26,445 nt of DNA from a virus. The notes beneath the pieces are model-generated. The model was not told where the DNA came from and searched no databases. It saw only the letters and a list, made by a program, of their open reading frames with translations. The stretch is from UHGV virus genome UHGV-0139945; one strand, given 5' to 3'. The position numbers and the translations under genes were made by a program. Positions 7,071 through 13,301 of this stretch are shown here, in pieces. Positions within the stretch are counted from its first letter, which is position 1, and each line of letters begins with the position of its first letter.

Positions 7071-8123
7071 TTATATTTCTATTAACCTTCTGATTTCTTC
7101 AGATGTCTGAATAAATCTTTCCGCCTCCAGCTCAACACCAATGGCGCGACGGCCTGATTTAATCGCTTCCTTTATCGTAGAACCGGATCCCATGAAAAAG
7201 TCAGCGATCAGTTCACCTGGCCGGCTGCTGGCTGTAATGATCTGCTGCAGCATATCGGCAGGTTTTTCACATGGATGTTTGCCTGGATAAAACTGAACTG
7301 GTTTATGCGTCCAGACGTCGGTATATGGCACCGTGACGGAGACACTAAACGGTCTTCGCAGACGCTGATATTCCTGCTGAAGTTCGGAGTATTTTCGATT
7401 AAGGGATTGCCAAGTAGCGACCAATTGGTGATGGGGTTTCCCGAGTTCGTTGCGCGAATGCTTGTCCAGGGCTATTTGCTGAAATAAAGCCTGCAGCTTC
7501 AGATAATCGGTTTCGTTCGGTAGTTGCCACTGGCTAAGGCCAAACCAATGGGAAACCATATTTTTCTTGCCTGTTGCGGCAGCAATTTGAGCTGAAGTTA
7601 CCCCAAGGGAATCCCTAGCGGCGCGGAAATATGTAATTAACGGGGTCATGACATGCTGCTTTAACTCGTTGCATTTAACAGCAAAGCCATCATCTTTTGG
7701 TTTGTATGGCCCCTGATAATGATCGGCGAAAATTATGCGTTCTGTCGCCGGGAAGTATGAACGGAGGCTCTCTTTATTACACCCGTTCCAGCGTCCGGAA
7801 GGTTTAGCCCAGACGATATGGTTAAGCAGATTAAACCGCTCACGGACGAGAAGCTCTATATCTGATGCCAGACGGTGACCACAAAACAGATACATACTGC
7901 CAGATGGCTTTAATACCCTCCAGAATTGCACCAGGCAGCTGTCAAGCCAACGTAAATAATCCTCATCCCCTTTCCACTGGTTGTCCCAACCGTTCGGCTT
8001 CACCTTAAAATACGGCGGATCCGTAACTATGAGATCTATGGAGTTATCGGGGATGGACGGGAGATATTGCAGGCAGTCAGAGTTGATCAACTCAACACTG
8101 GATATTTTTACAGTATTTTTCAT
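7071..8123 (-). CDS. DNA methyltransferase, beta-class (N6-adenine or N4-cytosine), 350 aa
   Basis: DPPY motif near the N-terminus (LIVTDPPYF) and AdoMet motif I near the C-terminus (ADFFMGSGST) give motif order IV...I; HTH-like insert (LGVTSAQIAAATG). Confidence 0.85.
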   Translation of the reverse strand: MKNTVKISSVELINSDCLQYLPSIPDNSIDLIVTDPPYFKVKPNGWDNQWKGDEDYLRWLDSCLVQFWRVLKPSGSMYLFCGHRLASDIELLVRERFNLLNHIVWAKPSGRWNGCNKESLRSYFPATERIIFADHYQGPYKPKDDGFAVKCNELKQHVMTPLITYFRAARDSLGVTSAQIAAATGKKNMVSHWFGLSQWQLPNETDYLKLQALFQQIALDKHSRNELGKPHHQLVATWQSLNRKYSELQQEYQRLRRPFSVSVTVPYTDVWTHKPVQFYPGKHPCEKPADMLQQIITASSRPGELIADFFMGSGSTIKEAIKSGRRAIGVELEAERFIQTSEEIRRLIEI

Positions 8124-8272
8124 AGATCAGTAAGCGTAACTCATGATAGGCTCACTTTGCTTTTGCGCTAAAGCAGTGGGCCTAGGTTCGCTTGTGACCA
8201 TGTACATGAGCGAATGGCTGGCCGGGTGCTACAACACCCACCAGCCGCCCATTTTCACAGCAGAAAGCCTCT

Positions 8273-8467
8273 CTACTCAGGGAGGCGCTTATAACATCCG
8301 AATTGATAATCCGATAAACCTGCCATTACCAGCTGCGTTAAAATTAACTGGCAGCGTTCGCGCGTTAGATGCGTGTTCTGCGCAATCTCCCCGGCCGTAG
8401 CTGGTTCATCACTTAACTCATTAAAAACAGCGCGCGCCACCTCTGTCATATCATCTTGATTTAGCAT
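8273..8467 (-). CDS. Hypothetical small protein, possible winged-helix, 64 aa
   Basis: ORF-track ORF; AGGAAA precedes the ATG at 8467; AGEIAQNTHLTRERCQLILTQLVMAGL is HTH-like; first gene after the tR'-like terminator. Confidence 0.4.
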   Translation of the reverse strand: MLNQDDMTEVARAVFNELSDEPATAGEIAQNTHLTRERCQLILTQLVMAGLSDYQFGCYKRLPE

Positions 8468-10442: not shown

Positions 10443-12409
10443 GCAACCTCCCTCTGCTCAGGAATACACATTTCCGGTAGGTTTGCCCTTACCAGAGCTT
10501 CAGCGAACGGCGGTGGGACGGCGTTGCCGCACCTAGCGACTTGTTTGTCTTTGGCGTAACGGTTGCCGCGGTAATCCTGATCGATGATGTAGCCCGCAGG
10601 AAAACCTTGCGCCCTGTACAGCTCGTGCGGCTGTAACATCCGCATGCCAATATCGACGATCTGATATTCAACCCCCTCAACCGTTACCAGACCAAAACGA
10701 TCGTTAGTGGTGACAGTTCCCAGCGGCTCATCCAGCGATACACCGCTTTTTTCGTTCCCGTAATACTTCATCAGGAAAGCTCGTACTTCCCCGACATGCT
10801 GACCGCCGGCGGTAATTGTTGGCACAGGTTCGTCAACTCTGCGACCGTCCTTGCAGGTGCCGCGAAGATGAACGAGGTGTGAAGTCACCATCGCCGCATC
10901 AGCTTTTGTTGTCAGAGTCTGCAACGGCTCATCAGCATCACGAGGGCGGCTTTGCCCCGCTCGACCACCAACGCCAACAATCTGGGCTGTCACTAAAGCG
11001 TGGTGATCGGTTGTCGTCACTGTGTGAGCAGGCTGATCTATTGCAGCGCCGGGGCCTGTATAATTCCCTCCGAAGTGTTTTGCCAGAAACGTGGTGACCA
11101 GCTGAGATTTACCGCCGCCCCCAGCTGTAATGGTTGCACTCGGCTCGTCGGCACCGTGGCCGACGCTGGCACCGAATTGACGTGCGATCACTGGTGCCAC
11201 TAAACAGGCTCGGGATTGTTTCAGGATGGTGTGGGCTGGCCTGTTGATTGCGCGTGGTTTGGCCTGATACTCACTGCCGCCATTGCCAGCGATGAACGGT
11301 ATCAACGTTGCTTTCACTATCCCTAGTGCATGTCCATTTCCCCCCGGGCGCTGCGAACTTCCCGCGGTAACGGTTGGTAATGGTTCAGTGCATTCCTGCC
11401 CGGTGGCGCCGGTACGAAATTTTGTGACATGTGGCGTCACTACGGCGTATCCGTGAGTTTTGGTAATGGTCTGCAGCGGGCTATCGATATCCTGCCCACG
11501 GAAACAGTCATACGAACTACGGGTGCTGGTGTGATTGCATTTGACGATGAAAGGCGTCGGATTATTCAGCACAAACCGCTCGATTCCGCGCGCAATGCGT
11601 TTCAGCGTGTTTTCTGCAAGCGGCTTTTTACGATCAAAGATGCTTTGGCACGGGATAGACCAGTCGATACATTCAGCTGCTGTACGCCACCCTGCCAGTT
11701 TGCCGCTTTGTACTTCGAGCGATTTGGGATCCCCATGAGTCGGCGCTGGCCAGTGGATAGTTTCACCGTCGCAGCGCATCACCATAAAGAATCTCTTCCT
11801 TATTGTCGGCGCCCCGAAATCACAGGCACGCAACTCGCGATAATCGATGGTATACCCAAGGCCAGATATCAGGGCCTTTGCCTGCTCACTGTCGGGAGGA
11901 ATAGACAGAAACTCGCAGGCTTCGGCCAGCGCGGGGTGATCGACCGGGATCCCCGTAGACAACATCCCGACAAATGCAGCGAAGGTTTCCCCTATGCGTG
12001 TCGGGTCCGGACGTGCCTCATCCTCCAGCAATGGCCCCCACGTCTTGAACTCTTCAACGTTCTCCAGCATTACAACGCGCGGACGCTTCGCCAACGCCCA
12101 GCGGACAACGATCCACGCGAGACCGCGAATCTCTTTCTTCACGGGCTTTGCACCCTTCGCCTTAGAGAAATGCCTACAGTCCGGGCTAAACCACGCCAGG
12201 CCAACCGGATTACCGCCGGTCGCCGCGACCGGGTCAACATCAAATACGGACTCACAATAATGGAGCGTATCTGGATGGTTGGTTTTGTGCATGGCAATAG
12301 CGTTTTCATCATGGTTTATCGCAATATCAACGCTGCGCCCGATCGCCAGCTCAATCCCTGTGGACGCGCCACCGCCACCAGCAAAATTATCGACAATAAT
12401 CTCACGCAT
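10439..12409 (-). CDS. DNA (cytosine-5)-methyltransferase with enlarged repeat-containing variable region, 656 aa
   Basis: Motif I FAGGGG, catalytic Pro-Cys (SPDCRHFS), ENV (VVMLENVEEF), QGFP (motif VIII) and GNAV (motif X); about 7 tandem DEPxxT[IV]T-like repeats between; 8-nt overlap with the upstream MTase gene. Confidence 0.9.
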   Translation of the reverse strand: MREIIVDNFAGGGGASTGIELAIGRSVDIAINHDENAIAMHKTNHPDTLHYCESVFDVDPVAATGGNPVGLAWFSPDCRHFSKAKGAKPVKKEIRGLAWIVVRWALAKRPRVVMLENVEEFKTWGPLLEDEARPDPTRIGETFAAFVGMLSTGIPVDHPALAEACEFLSIPPDSEQAKALISGLGYTIDYRELRACDFGAPTIRKRFFMVMRCDGETIHWPAPTHGDPKSLEVQSGKLAGWRTAAECIDWSIPCQSIFDRKKPLAENTLKRIARGIERFVLNNPTPFIVKCNHTSTRSSYDCFRGQDIDSPLQTITKTHGYAVVTPHVTKFRTGATGQECTEPLPTVTAGSSQRPGGNGHALGIVKATLIPFIAGNGGSEYQAKPRAINRPAHTILKQSRACLVAPVIARQFGASVGHGADEPSATITAGGGGKSQLVTTFLAKHFGGNYTGPGAAIDQPAHTVTTTDHHALVTAQIVGVGGRAGQSRPRDADEPLQTLTTKADAAMVTSHLVHLRGTCKDGRRVDEPVPTITAGGQHVGEVRAFLMKYYGNEKSGVSLDEPLGTVTTNDRFGLVTVEGVEYQIVDIGMRMLQPHELYRAQGFPAGYIIDQDYRGNRYAKDKQVARCGNAVPPPFAEALVRANLPEMCIPEQREVA

Positions 12410-13301
12410 GAGCGGCCCCCTGCATACTCCCTACCAGGCCACCAGCAACGGTGATGATCTCGCTGGTGGGCATGCGCTCCAGCCACAACTGGTTAATGTG
12501 GGCCTTCAGCTTGTTCTGCTGGGACAATTCCAGATCCTCAGCGCCTTCAACCTGGTTGAACACCAGCCCAACTTCCAGTGGCCATATCCGTGATTCAGCC
12601 TCAGCCAATGCTGCAAATCCAGCTTCGGGGATGATCACTTCAGGAGACTGAGCTGGCGAAGCTGGTGACAGGAATTTTCCTGCTGCAAACTCAGCCAAAG
12701 CCATACTTGCGCGCCCTTTCGCTTCAAGCTCTACACGATCGATATAGCTAAAGTGCTCGCCGCGCCAGGTCTTATCGAATACCACAATGGCCCCGGCAAA
12801 GAAGGCGCTGGTGGGCTTCTGCTTTTCGTCGGCCGGCACAAACCACGTAGGGAGATCGAAACCAATACGACCACGAATAAACATGATGTGATCGGCATAT
12901 TCCGGCCACCATGTTTCACTAGTTGCTGACTTCACGAGGTAAATGTAGCGACCGCCCTTTTCACGCTGCTCGGCGGTGTATTTCATGATATGAGTCATGC
13001 CAGTTATGGCTTGTTTTTTATGGTACTGCGAGCGGCTGTAGGGCGGATTAGCAAAGGCTGCACCGCCGAGTTCTCCTAGGCGACCAGACCAGTCCTGCGT
13101 CAACGCATTATCCTCAGCGGTGTACCATGCCGGGCATTTCGTGTTGCTGTCGTCAGCAAACAGATCCAGAACAAGAGGACCAAATAACGAATTAATTCCC
13201 CAGAACAAAAGATCAGGCGTACGCCACTGATCACCAACTTCTTTCAAATAATGGGACGGCGCAACACGCATTGCTTCCAGCGATTCACAATATGCATTCA
13301 T
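12402..13301 (-). CDS. Phage-type DNA N6-adenine methyltransferase (YfdM/phage Dam-like) with C-terminal extension
   Basis: WRTPDLLF...LDLFADD...AFANPPYSRS pattern typical of the phage N6-adenine MTase family (recollection); ATG at 13301 overlaps the upstream stop (TGATG); track start 13304 is GTG. Confidence 0.75.
   Translation of the reverse strand: MNAYCESLEAMRVAPSHYLKEVGDQWRTPDLLFWGINSLFGPLVLDLFADDSNTKCPAWYTAEDNALTQDWSGRLGELGGAAFANPPYSRSQYHKKQAITGMTHIMKYTAEQREKGGRYIYLVKSATSETWWPEYADHIMFIRGRIGFDLPTWFVPADEKQKPTSAFFAGAIVVFDKTWRGEHFSYIDRVELEAKGRASMALAEFAAGKFLSPASPAQSPEVIIPEAGFAALAEAESRIWPLEVGLVFNQVEGAEDLELSQQNKLKAHINQLWLERMPTSEIITVAGGLVGSMQGAAHA

Follow-up and report, generated by a model that had tools for sequence, protein, structure and literature searches.

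The 26,445-nt stretch of virus genome UHGV-0139945 analysed here (the window) carries four intact methyltransferase genes of four different families within 26 kb. These are a phage-type N6-adenine methyltransferase (Dam), a C5-cytosine methyltransferase with an enlarged variable region (C5), a beta-class N6-adenine methyltransferase of the late operon, and a D12-class N6-adenine methyltransferase next to the integrase gene. The reading preferred here, with a probability of roughly 0.6, is that of a prophage with four functional methyltransferases in three predicted expression settings, namely delayed-early (Dam and C5), late (the beta-class enzyme), and integrase-proximal cargo (D12). Enzyme activities, target specificities, and expression timing are all deduced from the sequence. 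Protection of phage DNA from restriction is the most plausible role for Dam, C5, and the late enzyme. The D12 enzyme more likely marks self DNA on behalf of a lysogen defence module than helps the phage to escape restriction.

The methyltransferases and their main parts are as follows (positions are those of the window; lengths in amino acids, aa).

7071-8123, minus strand: late-operon beta-class N6-adenine methyltransferase of the M.EcoGI/GII family, 350 aa (Pfam N6_N4_Mtase, 2.6e-40)
10439-12409, minus strand: C5-cytosine methyltransferase with expanded variable region, 656 aa (Pfam PF00145, DNA_methylase, 1.2e-20, in three stretches)
10679-11557, minus strand: eight tandem target-recognition-like modules, aa 285-577 of C5 (repeated core and hidden Markov model, HMM)
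12405-12608, minus strand: C-terminal three-helix tail of the Dam open reading frame (ORF), aa 232-299 (locus linkage and AlphaFold2)
12609-13301, minus strand: phage-type N6-adenine methyltransferase domain of the Dam ORF (Pfam Dam, PF05869, 2.4e-43, aa 17-198)
25509-26390, plus strand: D12-class (Dam-like) N6-adenine methyltransferase, last gene before the attachment (att) core (Pfam MethyltransfD12, 4.3e-17)

An initial annotation of the window had proposed four methyltransferases at these coordinates, and it was borne out, as each of the four ORFs scored above its Pfam gathering cut-off. The same annotation had allowed that one or more of the ORFs might lack catalytic residues; on checking, the catalytic motifs were intact in all four. 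No fifth methyltransferase was found among the remaining tested ORFs of the window.

C5-cytosine methyltransferase and its tandem modules

Motifs I, IV, VI, VIII, IX, and X of C5 were all found (F-A-G-G-G-G, S-P-D-C, E-N-V, R-K-R, Q-G-F-P, and G-N-A-V-P-P, respectively). Motif IV contains Pro-Asp-Cys instead of the usual Pro-Cys, which is the sole departure among the motifs of the four enzymes. Because S-P-D-C was also present in 105 of 150 distant family representatives when a strict pattern was used, this variant is characteristic of the family and does not signal a lesion. The protein is far longer than an ordinary C5 enzyme, and the surplus lies between motifs VIII and IX, where eight modules of 32-48 aa follow one another, each with one P-x-x-T-[ILV]-T core (at aa 311, 343, 391, 423, 460, 495, 528, and 562). 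In a leave-one-out test, each module scored 12.7-32 bits against an HMM of the other seven, and the best of 200 shuffles scored at most 9.3 bits. Modules 2 and 7 resemble each other, as do modules 5 and 8.

The modules vary as units among relatives; the natural variants P0112, P0004, and P0003, for example, have 6, 7, and 9 of them. Ten relatives of 575-730 aa were aligned, and their length differences were clean insertions or deletions of single modules at several positions, with module 8 replaced in some. An iterated profile detected 6-10 modules in the 120 closest cluster representatives, with the module count tracking protein length; the modules of this set fall into nine types and 14 architectures, and the architecture of the window enzyme, CADEBFAB, was seen in one of the 120. 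The 150 best distant representatives, of 403-1113 aa, contain 2-11 modules each, and the modules remain recognisable at about 50% identity. The family comprises at least 2738 clusters (50% identity, E <= 1e-30) and occurs in many Enterobacterales genera.

The correspondence of the modules to a known part of C5 enzymes was assessed using a chimera test, in which a single module was set directly before motif IX and scanned against ordinary C5 profiles with a single target-recognition domain (TRD) from PADLOC. Seven of the eight modules extended the alignment with a gain of 3-30 bits, and the shuffled module and the control with no module gained nothing. The modules therefore correspond to the conserved segment preceding motif IX, that is, the C-terminal part of the recognition domain. 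Scans of the chimeras against Pfam PF00145 were uninformative, the score being unchanged (25.9-27.4 bits; control, 26.1).

A comparable layout is found in the multispecific C5 enzymes of Bacillus phages (M.SPRI, M.Rho11sI, M.H2I, and M.Phi3TI), which also come from temperate phages, have an enlarged region between motifs VIII and IX with tandem units of about 40 aa bearing the core, and differ in their set of units between related phages. In M.SPRI, M.Rho11sI, and M.H2I, the core S/E-P-x-x-T-[ILV]-T occurs three or four times at a spacing of about 40 aa. The Bacillus enzymes differ from the window enzyme in having P-C-Q at motif IV and three or four units, compared with eight in the window and up to 10-11 in its relatives, and the window enzyme is in addition linked to the three-helix module described below. 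Common descent of the two groups was considered and rejected, since the repeat HMM aligned to M.SPRI, M.Rho11sI, and M.H2I over only the 8-15 aa core with -4 to 2 bits, and motif IV differs. Beyond the core, the tandem layout, and the general C5 motifs, no similarity was detected, and the two groups share an architecture but belong to separate lineages. Trautner and colleagues reportedly showed that each unit of the Bacillus enzymes serves one target and that some units are inactive pseudo-domains. The C5 enzyme of the window would, if it acts on the model of these proteins, methylate several distinct cytosine motifs on replicating phage DNA. Arrays of multiple recognition domains in one polypeptide protect Bacillus temperate phages against many restriction systems (PMC12707154).

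The modules may instead be structural repeats that build one extended DNA-binding surface with a single long or relaxed (near-non-specific) specificity, or they may be mostly inactive pseudo-domains. This explanation, which we regard as unlikely, draws on several observations that tell against one target per module. At 32-48 aa, the modules are about half the size of a typical monospecific recognition region, and the likeness of modules 2 and 7 and of modules 5 and 8 fits structural duplication. In the chimera test, module 2 gave no gain and several others gave 3-8 bits. The AlphaFold2 model of C5, built from a 10-sequence alignment, had a mean pLDDT (predicted local distance difference test) of 37 and was unusable as support for independent folding of the modules; a phmmer search of the module region against solved structures returned chance matches only; and the likeness to the three Bacillus enzymes is confined to the short core. 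As pseudo-domains are known in Bacillus phage enzymes, some of the C5 modules could by analogy be inactive as well, and no paper on a characterised enterobacterial multi-module C5 enzyme was found in a literature search. On the other side, relatives gain and lose single modules at varied positions with the reading frame and the core intact, which a cooperative fold would tolerate poorly. The Bacillus recognition domains are of similar size, and their core spacing of about 40 aa was observed here. Seven of the eight modules, moreover, align individually to the segment preceding motif IX of single-TRD enzymes. Separate recognition of several cytosine motifs is thus preferred for C5.

Dam ORF and its three-helix tail

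The Dam ORF (12402-13301, minus strand) is a fusion in which the PF05869 domain extends to about aa 200 and is followed by an extra region of about 100 aa that ends in a 65-aa tail. It scored 148 bits against PF05869 (cut-off 28) and 189 bits against TIGR01712 (4.6e-56; cut-off 97), and the catalytic motif NPPY lies at aa 85. In its whole-profile catalytic match and its NPPY motif, it resembles the phage-type Dam enzymes of phages T1, HP1, and VT2-Sa, from which it differs by the C-terminal region and its C5-linked module. Characterised members of this type have GATC specificity. The ATG at 13301 shares 1 nt with the upstream TGA and is preceded by AGGAGG 10 nt upstream, so that the start chosen in the initial annotation is likelier than the first in-frame start, a GTG at 13304. 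The translational coupling of Dam and C5 was likewise confirmed as an 8-nt overlap of the Dam stop with the C5 start (ATGCGTGA). The C5 stop and the start of the next gene, encoding a DUF968 protein, overlap by 4 nt (ATGA).

The tail had no match in Pfam. Its distribution was surveyed in 80 loci, each representing a species and carrying a gene of the C5 family, with 8 kb on either side; 69 of these are of Enterobacterales type and the 11 others are mostly from Firmicutes. A profile of the tail detected exactly one copy in 69 of the 80 loci, in each case within the ORF ending at the start of C5, and these are all of the Enterobacterales-type loci; it was not detected in the 11 others. In about 27 loci the tail stands alone as an ORF of about 85 aa (e.g., L040, 7744-8004), a form represented by 908 clusters in the protein database, and it is fused to PF05869, as in the window, in about 27 loci. 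Other fusions join it to MT-A70 (L045 and L022), to a ParB-type helix-turn-helix domain (L052), to PAPS_reduct plus Dam (L033), or to unassigned domains. AlphaFold2 predicted a three-helix bundle with block-mean pLDDT values of 92-96 over residues 31-80, for which a fold search against the PDB returned generic three-helix bundles only, all at E > 1.

The tail invariably keeps this place before C5, whether it stands alone or is joined to one or another adenine methylase, which suggests a hitherto unrecognised partner subunit; we infer that it serves the C5 enzyme as a partner or adaptor. The absence of any fusion of the tail to C5 among 270 C5 proteins speaks against this. In the proposed mechanism, the coupled Dam-tail protein and C5 would be made together from the delayed-early operon between the replication gene and the antiterminator gene Q, the tail acting as the partner module of C5.

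As a side observation, members of the C5 family with 52-57% identity occur in Paenibacillus, Cohnella, Clostridia, Selenomonadales, and a gammaproteobacterial metagenome-assembled genome; these have no tail module upstream (L078 and L081-L090).

A more far-reaching view would be that of a very large uncharacterised family of prophage C5 enzymes that stack 2-11 exchangeable modules, recognise more motifs than any characterised enzyme, and require a three-helix partner throughout the Enterobacterales. The partner, encoded alone or fused to adenine methylases of unrelated families, would then bring the two activities together in a combined N6-methyladenine and 5-methylcytosine (m6A/m5C) complex. 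Taken as a whole this is doubtful. If each module adds a target, C5 would be a natural, cassette-built, broad-spectrum protective methylase, which would help to account for the passage of temperate phages of Klebsiella, Enterobacter, and Citrobacter through restriction barriers, and the enzyme would be usable to pre-methylate DNA that is to be transformed into clinical strains. The multi-module C5 family and the linked three-helix module are the parts of this locus worth following.

Late beta-class methyltransferase

The late enzyme and its upstream neighbours lie in the following region, in which the order Q, terminator, small ORF, and methyltransferase is common to the window and phage 1720a-02.

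8273-8467, minus strand: small winged-helix-like ORF, 64 aa, between the terminator and the late methyltransferase (weak Pfam matches)
8552-8571, minus strand: intrinsic-terminator-like hairpin, tR'-like, downstream of Q (8-pair stem with 5 GC pairs, then TTTTTAT)
8661-9380, minus strand: antiterminator Q (Pfam Phage_antiter_Q, 1.8e-35)
9381-10442, minus strand: DUF968 protein with an HNH-like C-terminus (Pfam DUF968, 9.8e-72; HNHc_6, 1.3e-4)

The N6_N4_Mtase match of the late enzyme spans aa 29-337, with DPPY at aa 35 and F-M-G-S-G (FxGxG) at aa 310, which is the beta-class order. The enzyme is 74% identical (87% positives, no gaps, 348 aa) to the methyltransferase of phage 1720a-02, with the central recognition region conserved, and 74-80% identical over its full length to the methyltransferase encoded after Q in many lambdoid and Shiga toxin (Stx) phages of Escherichia coli, Shigella, and Citrobacter. 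The 1720a-02 enzyme has been described as very similar to M.EcoGII, an enzyme that modifies adenine regardless of context, is unexpressed in the lysogen, and harms the cell when it is made (PMC5778455). The window enzyme shares with M.EcoGI and M.EcoGII, from prophages of E. coli O104:H4, the beta-class motif order, a similar length (350 versus 349 aa), and a site after Q that matches that of its close relative in 1720a-02. The aligned relative is, however, the 1720a-02 enzyme and not M.EcoGII, so that a lack of sequence specificity is extrapolated by way of this phage across 26% sequence divergence, which is a point against the reading given here for the late enzyme.

By analogy, the late enzyme would be silent in the lysogen and, after induction, would depend on Q for its expression and methylate adenines in DNA awaiting packaging, largely or wholly regardless of sequence. 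The initial annotation had assigned the methyltransferases to both delayed-early and late expression classes. The gene order agrees with it, since Dam and C5 lie between the replication gene and Q, and the beta-class gene lies downstream of Q and the terminator. The matches of the 64-aa ORF to DprA_WH (1e-4) and TrmB (4e-3) are below the Pfam cut-off; in E. coli relatives, a 'TrmB family transcriptional regulator' is annotated beside the methyltransferase, and the product of this ORF may act with the late methylase as a partner or serve as its regulator.

Some or all of the enzymes may instead serve phage regulation, such as the timing of replication or packaging or the choice between lysis and lysogeny, or may methylate RNA or rRNA and so affect the frequency of induction. 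A precedent comes from an Stx prophage, in which an MT-A70 'DNA adenine methyltransferase' with the small winged-helix partner PNB-2 prefers 16S rRNA and controls spontaneous induction; the partner is co-transcribed from upstream, is needed, and sets the choice of substrate (PMC10810198). The winged-helix-like ORF before the late enzyme and the three-helix module before C5 could by analogy be small modules of this kind. RNA is also methylated by M.EcoGII (PMC5778455), and packaging of phage P1 requires Dam methylation (PMC12707154). The rRNA-acting enzyme belongs to a different family (MT-A70, with DPPW) and a different operon, however; no MT-A70 gene was found in the window, and no homology between PNB-2 and the window modules is claimed. 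Whole-module variation between close phages is predicted by an arms race with host restriction and not by a fixed regulatory target, and M.EcoGII and the multi-domain Bacillus enzymes have been treated as protective modifiers that act at the time of exit (PMC12707154). A regulatory or RNA-directed role is accordingly considered rather improbable, and anti-restriction is retained for Dam, C5, and the late enzyme.

The DUF968 gene adjoins Q in the window; about 24 of the 80 related loci have it downstream of C5, either as the next gene or no more than a few kb away.

Integrase-proximal ATPase and D12 methyltransferase

The D12 gene follows two other plus-strand genes.

22472-23638, plus strand: tyrosine integrase (Pfam Arm-DNA-bind_2, 5.5e-22; Phage_integrase, 5.3e-17)
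23642-25429, plus strand: ABC-type ATPase (AAA_15/AAA_21), 595 aa (Pfam AAA_15, 9.5e-16; AAA_21, 3e-12)

The D12 protein has its DPPY motif at aa 194 and matches the PADLOC model PD-Lambda-5_B at 5.1e-123, with aa 1-283 aligned to profile positions 1-284 of 291. Two genes, one of which encodes a methylase, make up PD-lambda-5, a prophage defence system validated by experiment. In the view of its authors, it is a restriction-modification plus abortive-infection system in a compacted form suited to prophages, and its cloning needed an mrr deletion strain (PMC9519451). The window pair is like this system in the full-length match to component B, in being prophage-borne, and in the pairing of the methylase with a second gene; it differs in that the partner is an ABC-type ATPase resembling PtuA, AriA, and GajA and not PD-Lambda-5_A. 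The ATPase and D12 genes form one low-GC block and occur together with the integrase gene in every contig recovered and in Citrobacter phage phiNP (88% identity). We infer that the pair is a defence module of the lysogen, which would act in a restriction-like or abortive manner, with the methylase marking self DNA.

The best PADLOC match of the ATPase was PtuA at 1e-20, with AriA, GajA, and ATPase-Toprim_I-B also among its best matches. Its assignment as PD-Lambda-5_A was rejected, that model being absent from the best 25 PADLOC matches. No nuclease domain was detected in it with Pfam or PADLOC, and its C-terminal 266 aa (aa 330-595) had no match in either. These results, together with a weak match of D12 to the PADLOC orphan-methylase models (1.5e-15), would fit an orphan methylase expressed in the lysogen for epigenetic or anti-restriction purposes, next to an ATPase gene whose position has no functional meaning. 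Such an arrangement is judged quite unlikely in view of the single low-GC block, the retention of the pair in phiNP and in every contig recovered, and the full-length match to PD-Lambda-5_B. The family to which the ATPase belongs (PtuA, AriA, GajA, and OLD-like proteins) is, moreover, typical of defence effectors, and its C-terminal part contains VVLDGDVAND, a possible Toprim-like D-x-D motif as in OLD/GajA nucleases. The defence reading of the pair is therefore kept.

The initial annotation had taken the four enzymes to suggest heavy investment in escaping host restriction or in epigenetic control. Escape from restriction is still plausible for three of the genes, given the M.EcoGII family of the late enzyme and the multi-module C5, but does not extend to the fourth, for which the PD-Lambda-5_B match and the ATPase partner make self-marking likely.

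Spread of the methyltransferase set

The closest phage DNA to the window is that of Klebsiella phages and of the Citrobacter rodentium phage phiNP (OR565852). In phiNP, the gene order from the replication gene through the PF05869 methylase, C5, DUF968, Q, the small ORF, and the beta-class methylase to the holin is as in the window, and the same integrase, ATPase, and D12 region and the same att core are present; its late enzyme is 80% identical to that of the window. The two differ in C5, which is about 575 aa in phiNP and 656 aa in the window, the phiNP enzyme being shorter by about two modules. They differ also in an extra 'adenine-specific methyltransferase' in the early-left operon of phiNP (39187-39918; L091, 1371-2102), which has no counterpart in the window and brings the number in phiNP to five. 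The D12 gene is unannotated in the phiNP record. The phage is functional, and methylation is unmentioned in its paper (PMC6456863).

A full-length PF05869 methylase, C5, and a close relative of the late enzyme were found combined in 7 of the 80 loci, in Mixta, Enterobacter, Klebsiella spallanzanii, Buttiauxella, Serratia, and others. In the K. spallanzanii locus (L063, 7115-13213), identity to the window is 95-97% for DUF968, Q, and the late methylase, compared with 62% for C5 and 77% for Dam. The drop in identity marks a recombination boundary at the C5/DUF968 junction, and the Dam-C5 pair has therefore been exchanged as a cassette.

The density of methyltransferases is not exceptional. It is a known feature of this phage group, as phiNP carries one methyltransferase beyond the window's set, and other genera also have the combination of three. 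Several methyltransferases per prophage are ordinary, relatives such as phiNP share the set, and orphan methylases of phages are a well-known anti-restriction device.

Prophage setting and attachment site

The window is most of a lambda-like prophage at an ssrA-type site, with Klebsiella as the probable host. On the minus strand, the order is terminase, lysis genes, late methyltransferase, Q, DUF968, C5, Dam, an O-like replication gene, Rha/antirepressor, and then cro. The plus strand carries a cI-type repressor, early-left genes, the integrase, and then the low-GC pair (GC content, 0.33-0.37). For the C5 protein, a Klebsiella MULTISPECIES record with 100% identity was seen on 46 contigs.

Phage phiNP integrates at the 3' end of ssrA, which constitutes its 25-bp attachment core (PMC6456863). 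Contigs overlapping the window contain this core exactly once. In contig L002, which has 1 mismatch to the window in 10,937 nt, it lies 46-70 bp past the right end of the window. A search for tRNA or transfer-messenger RNA genes at the junction found none; only the 25-bp ssrA 3' core is present there. Because the core lies beyond 25509-26390, the fourth methyltransferase is the last gene within the prophage, next to the integrase, and its earlier placement in an adjacent islet was rejected.

The host flank to the right of the prophage (L002, 13882-19479) encodes an AraC-type regulator, a resistance-nodulation-division (RND) efflux pair, and an Rrf2 regulator. This flank resembles the rarA-oqxAB-oqxR locus of Klebsiella, a likeness that agrees with the host assignment. 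In one genome (L003, 11173-19218), a second mobile element is inserted directly behind the att core of the prophage, with a P4-like integrase, NA37, a RelA_SpoT-domain gene, a relaxase, and MobC as its cargo; the ssrA-derived site has therefore been used in tandem.

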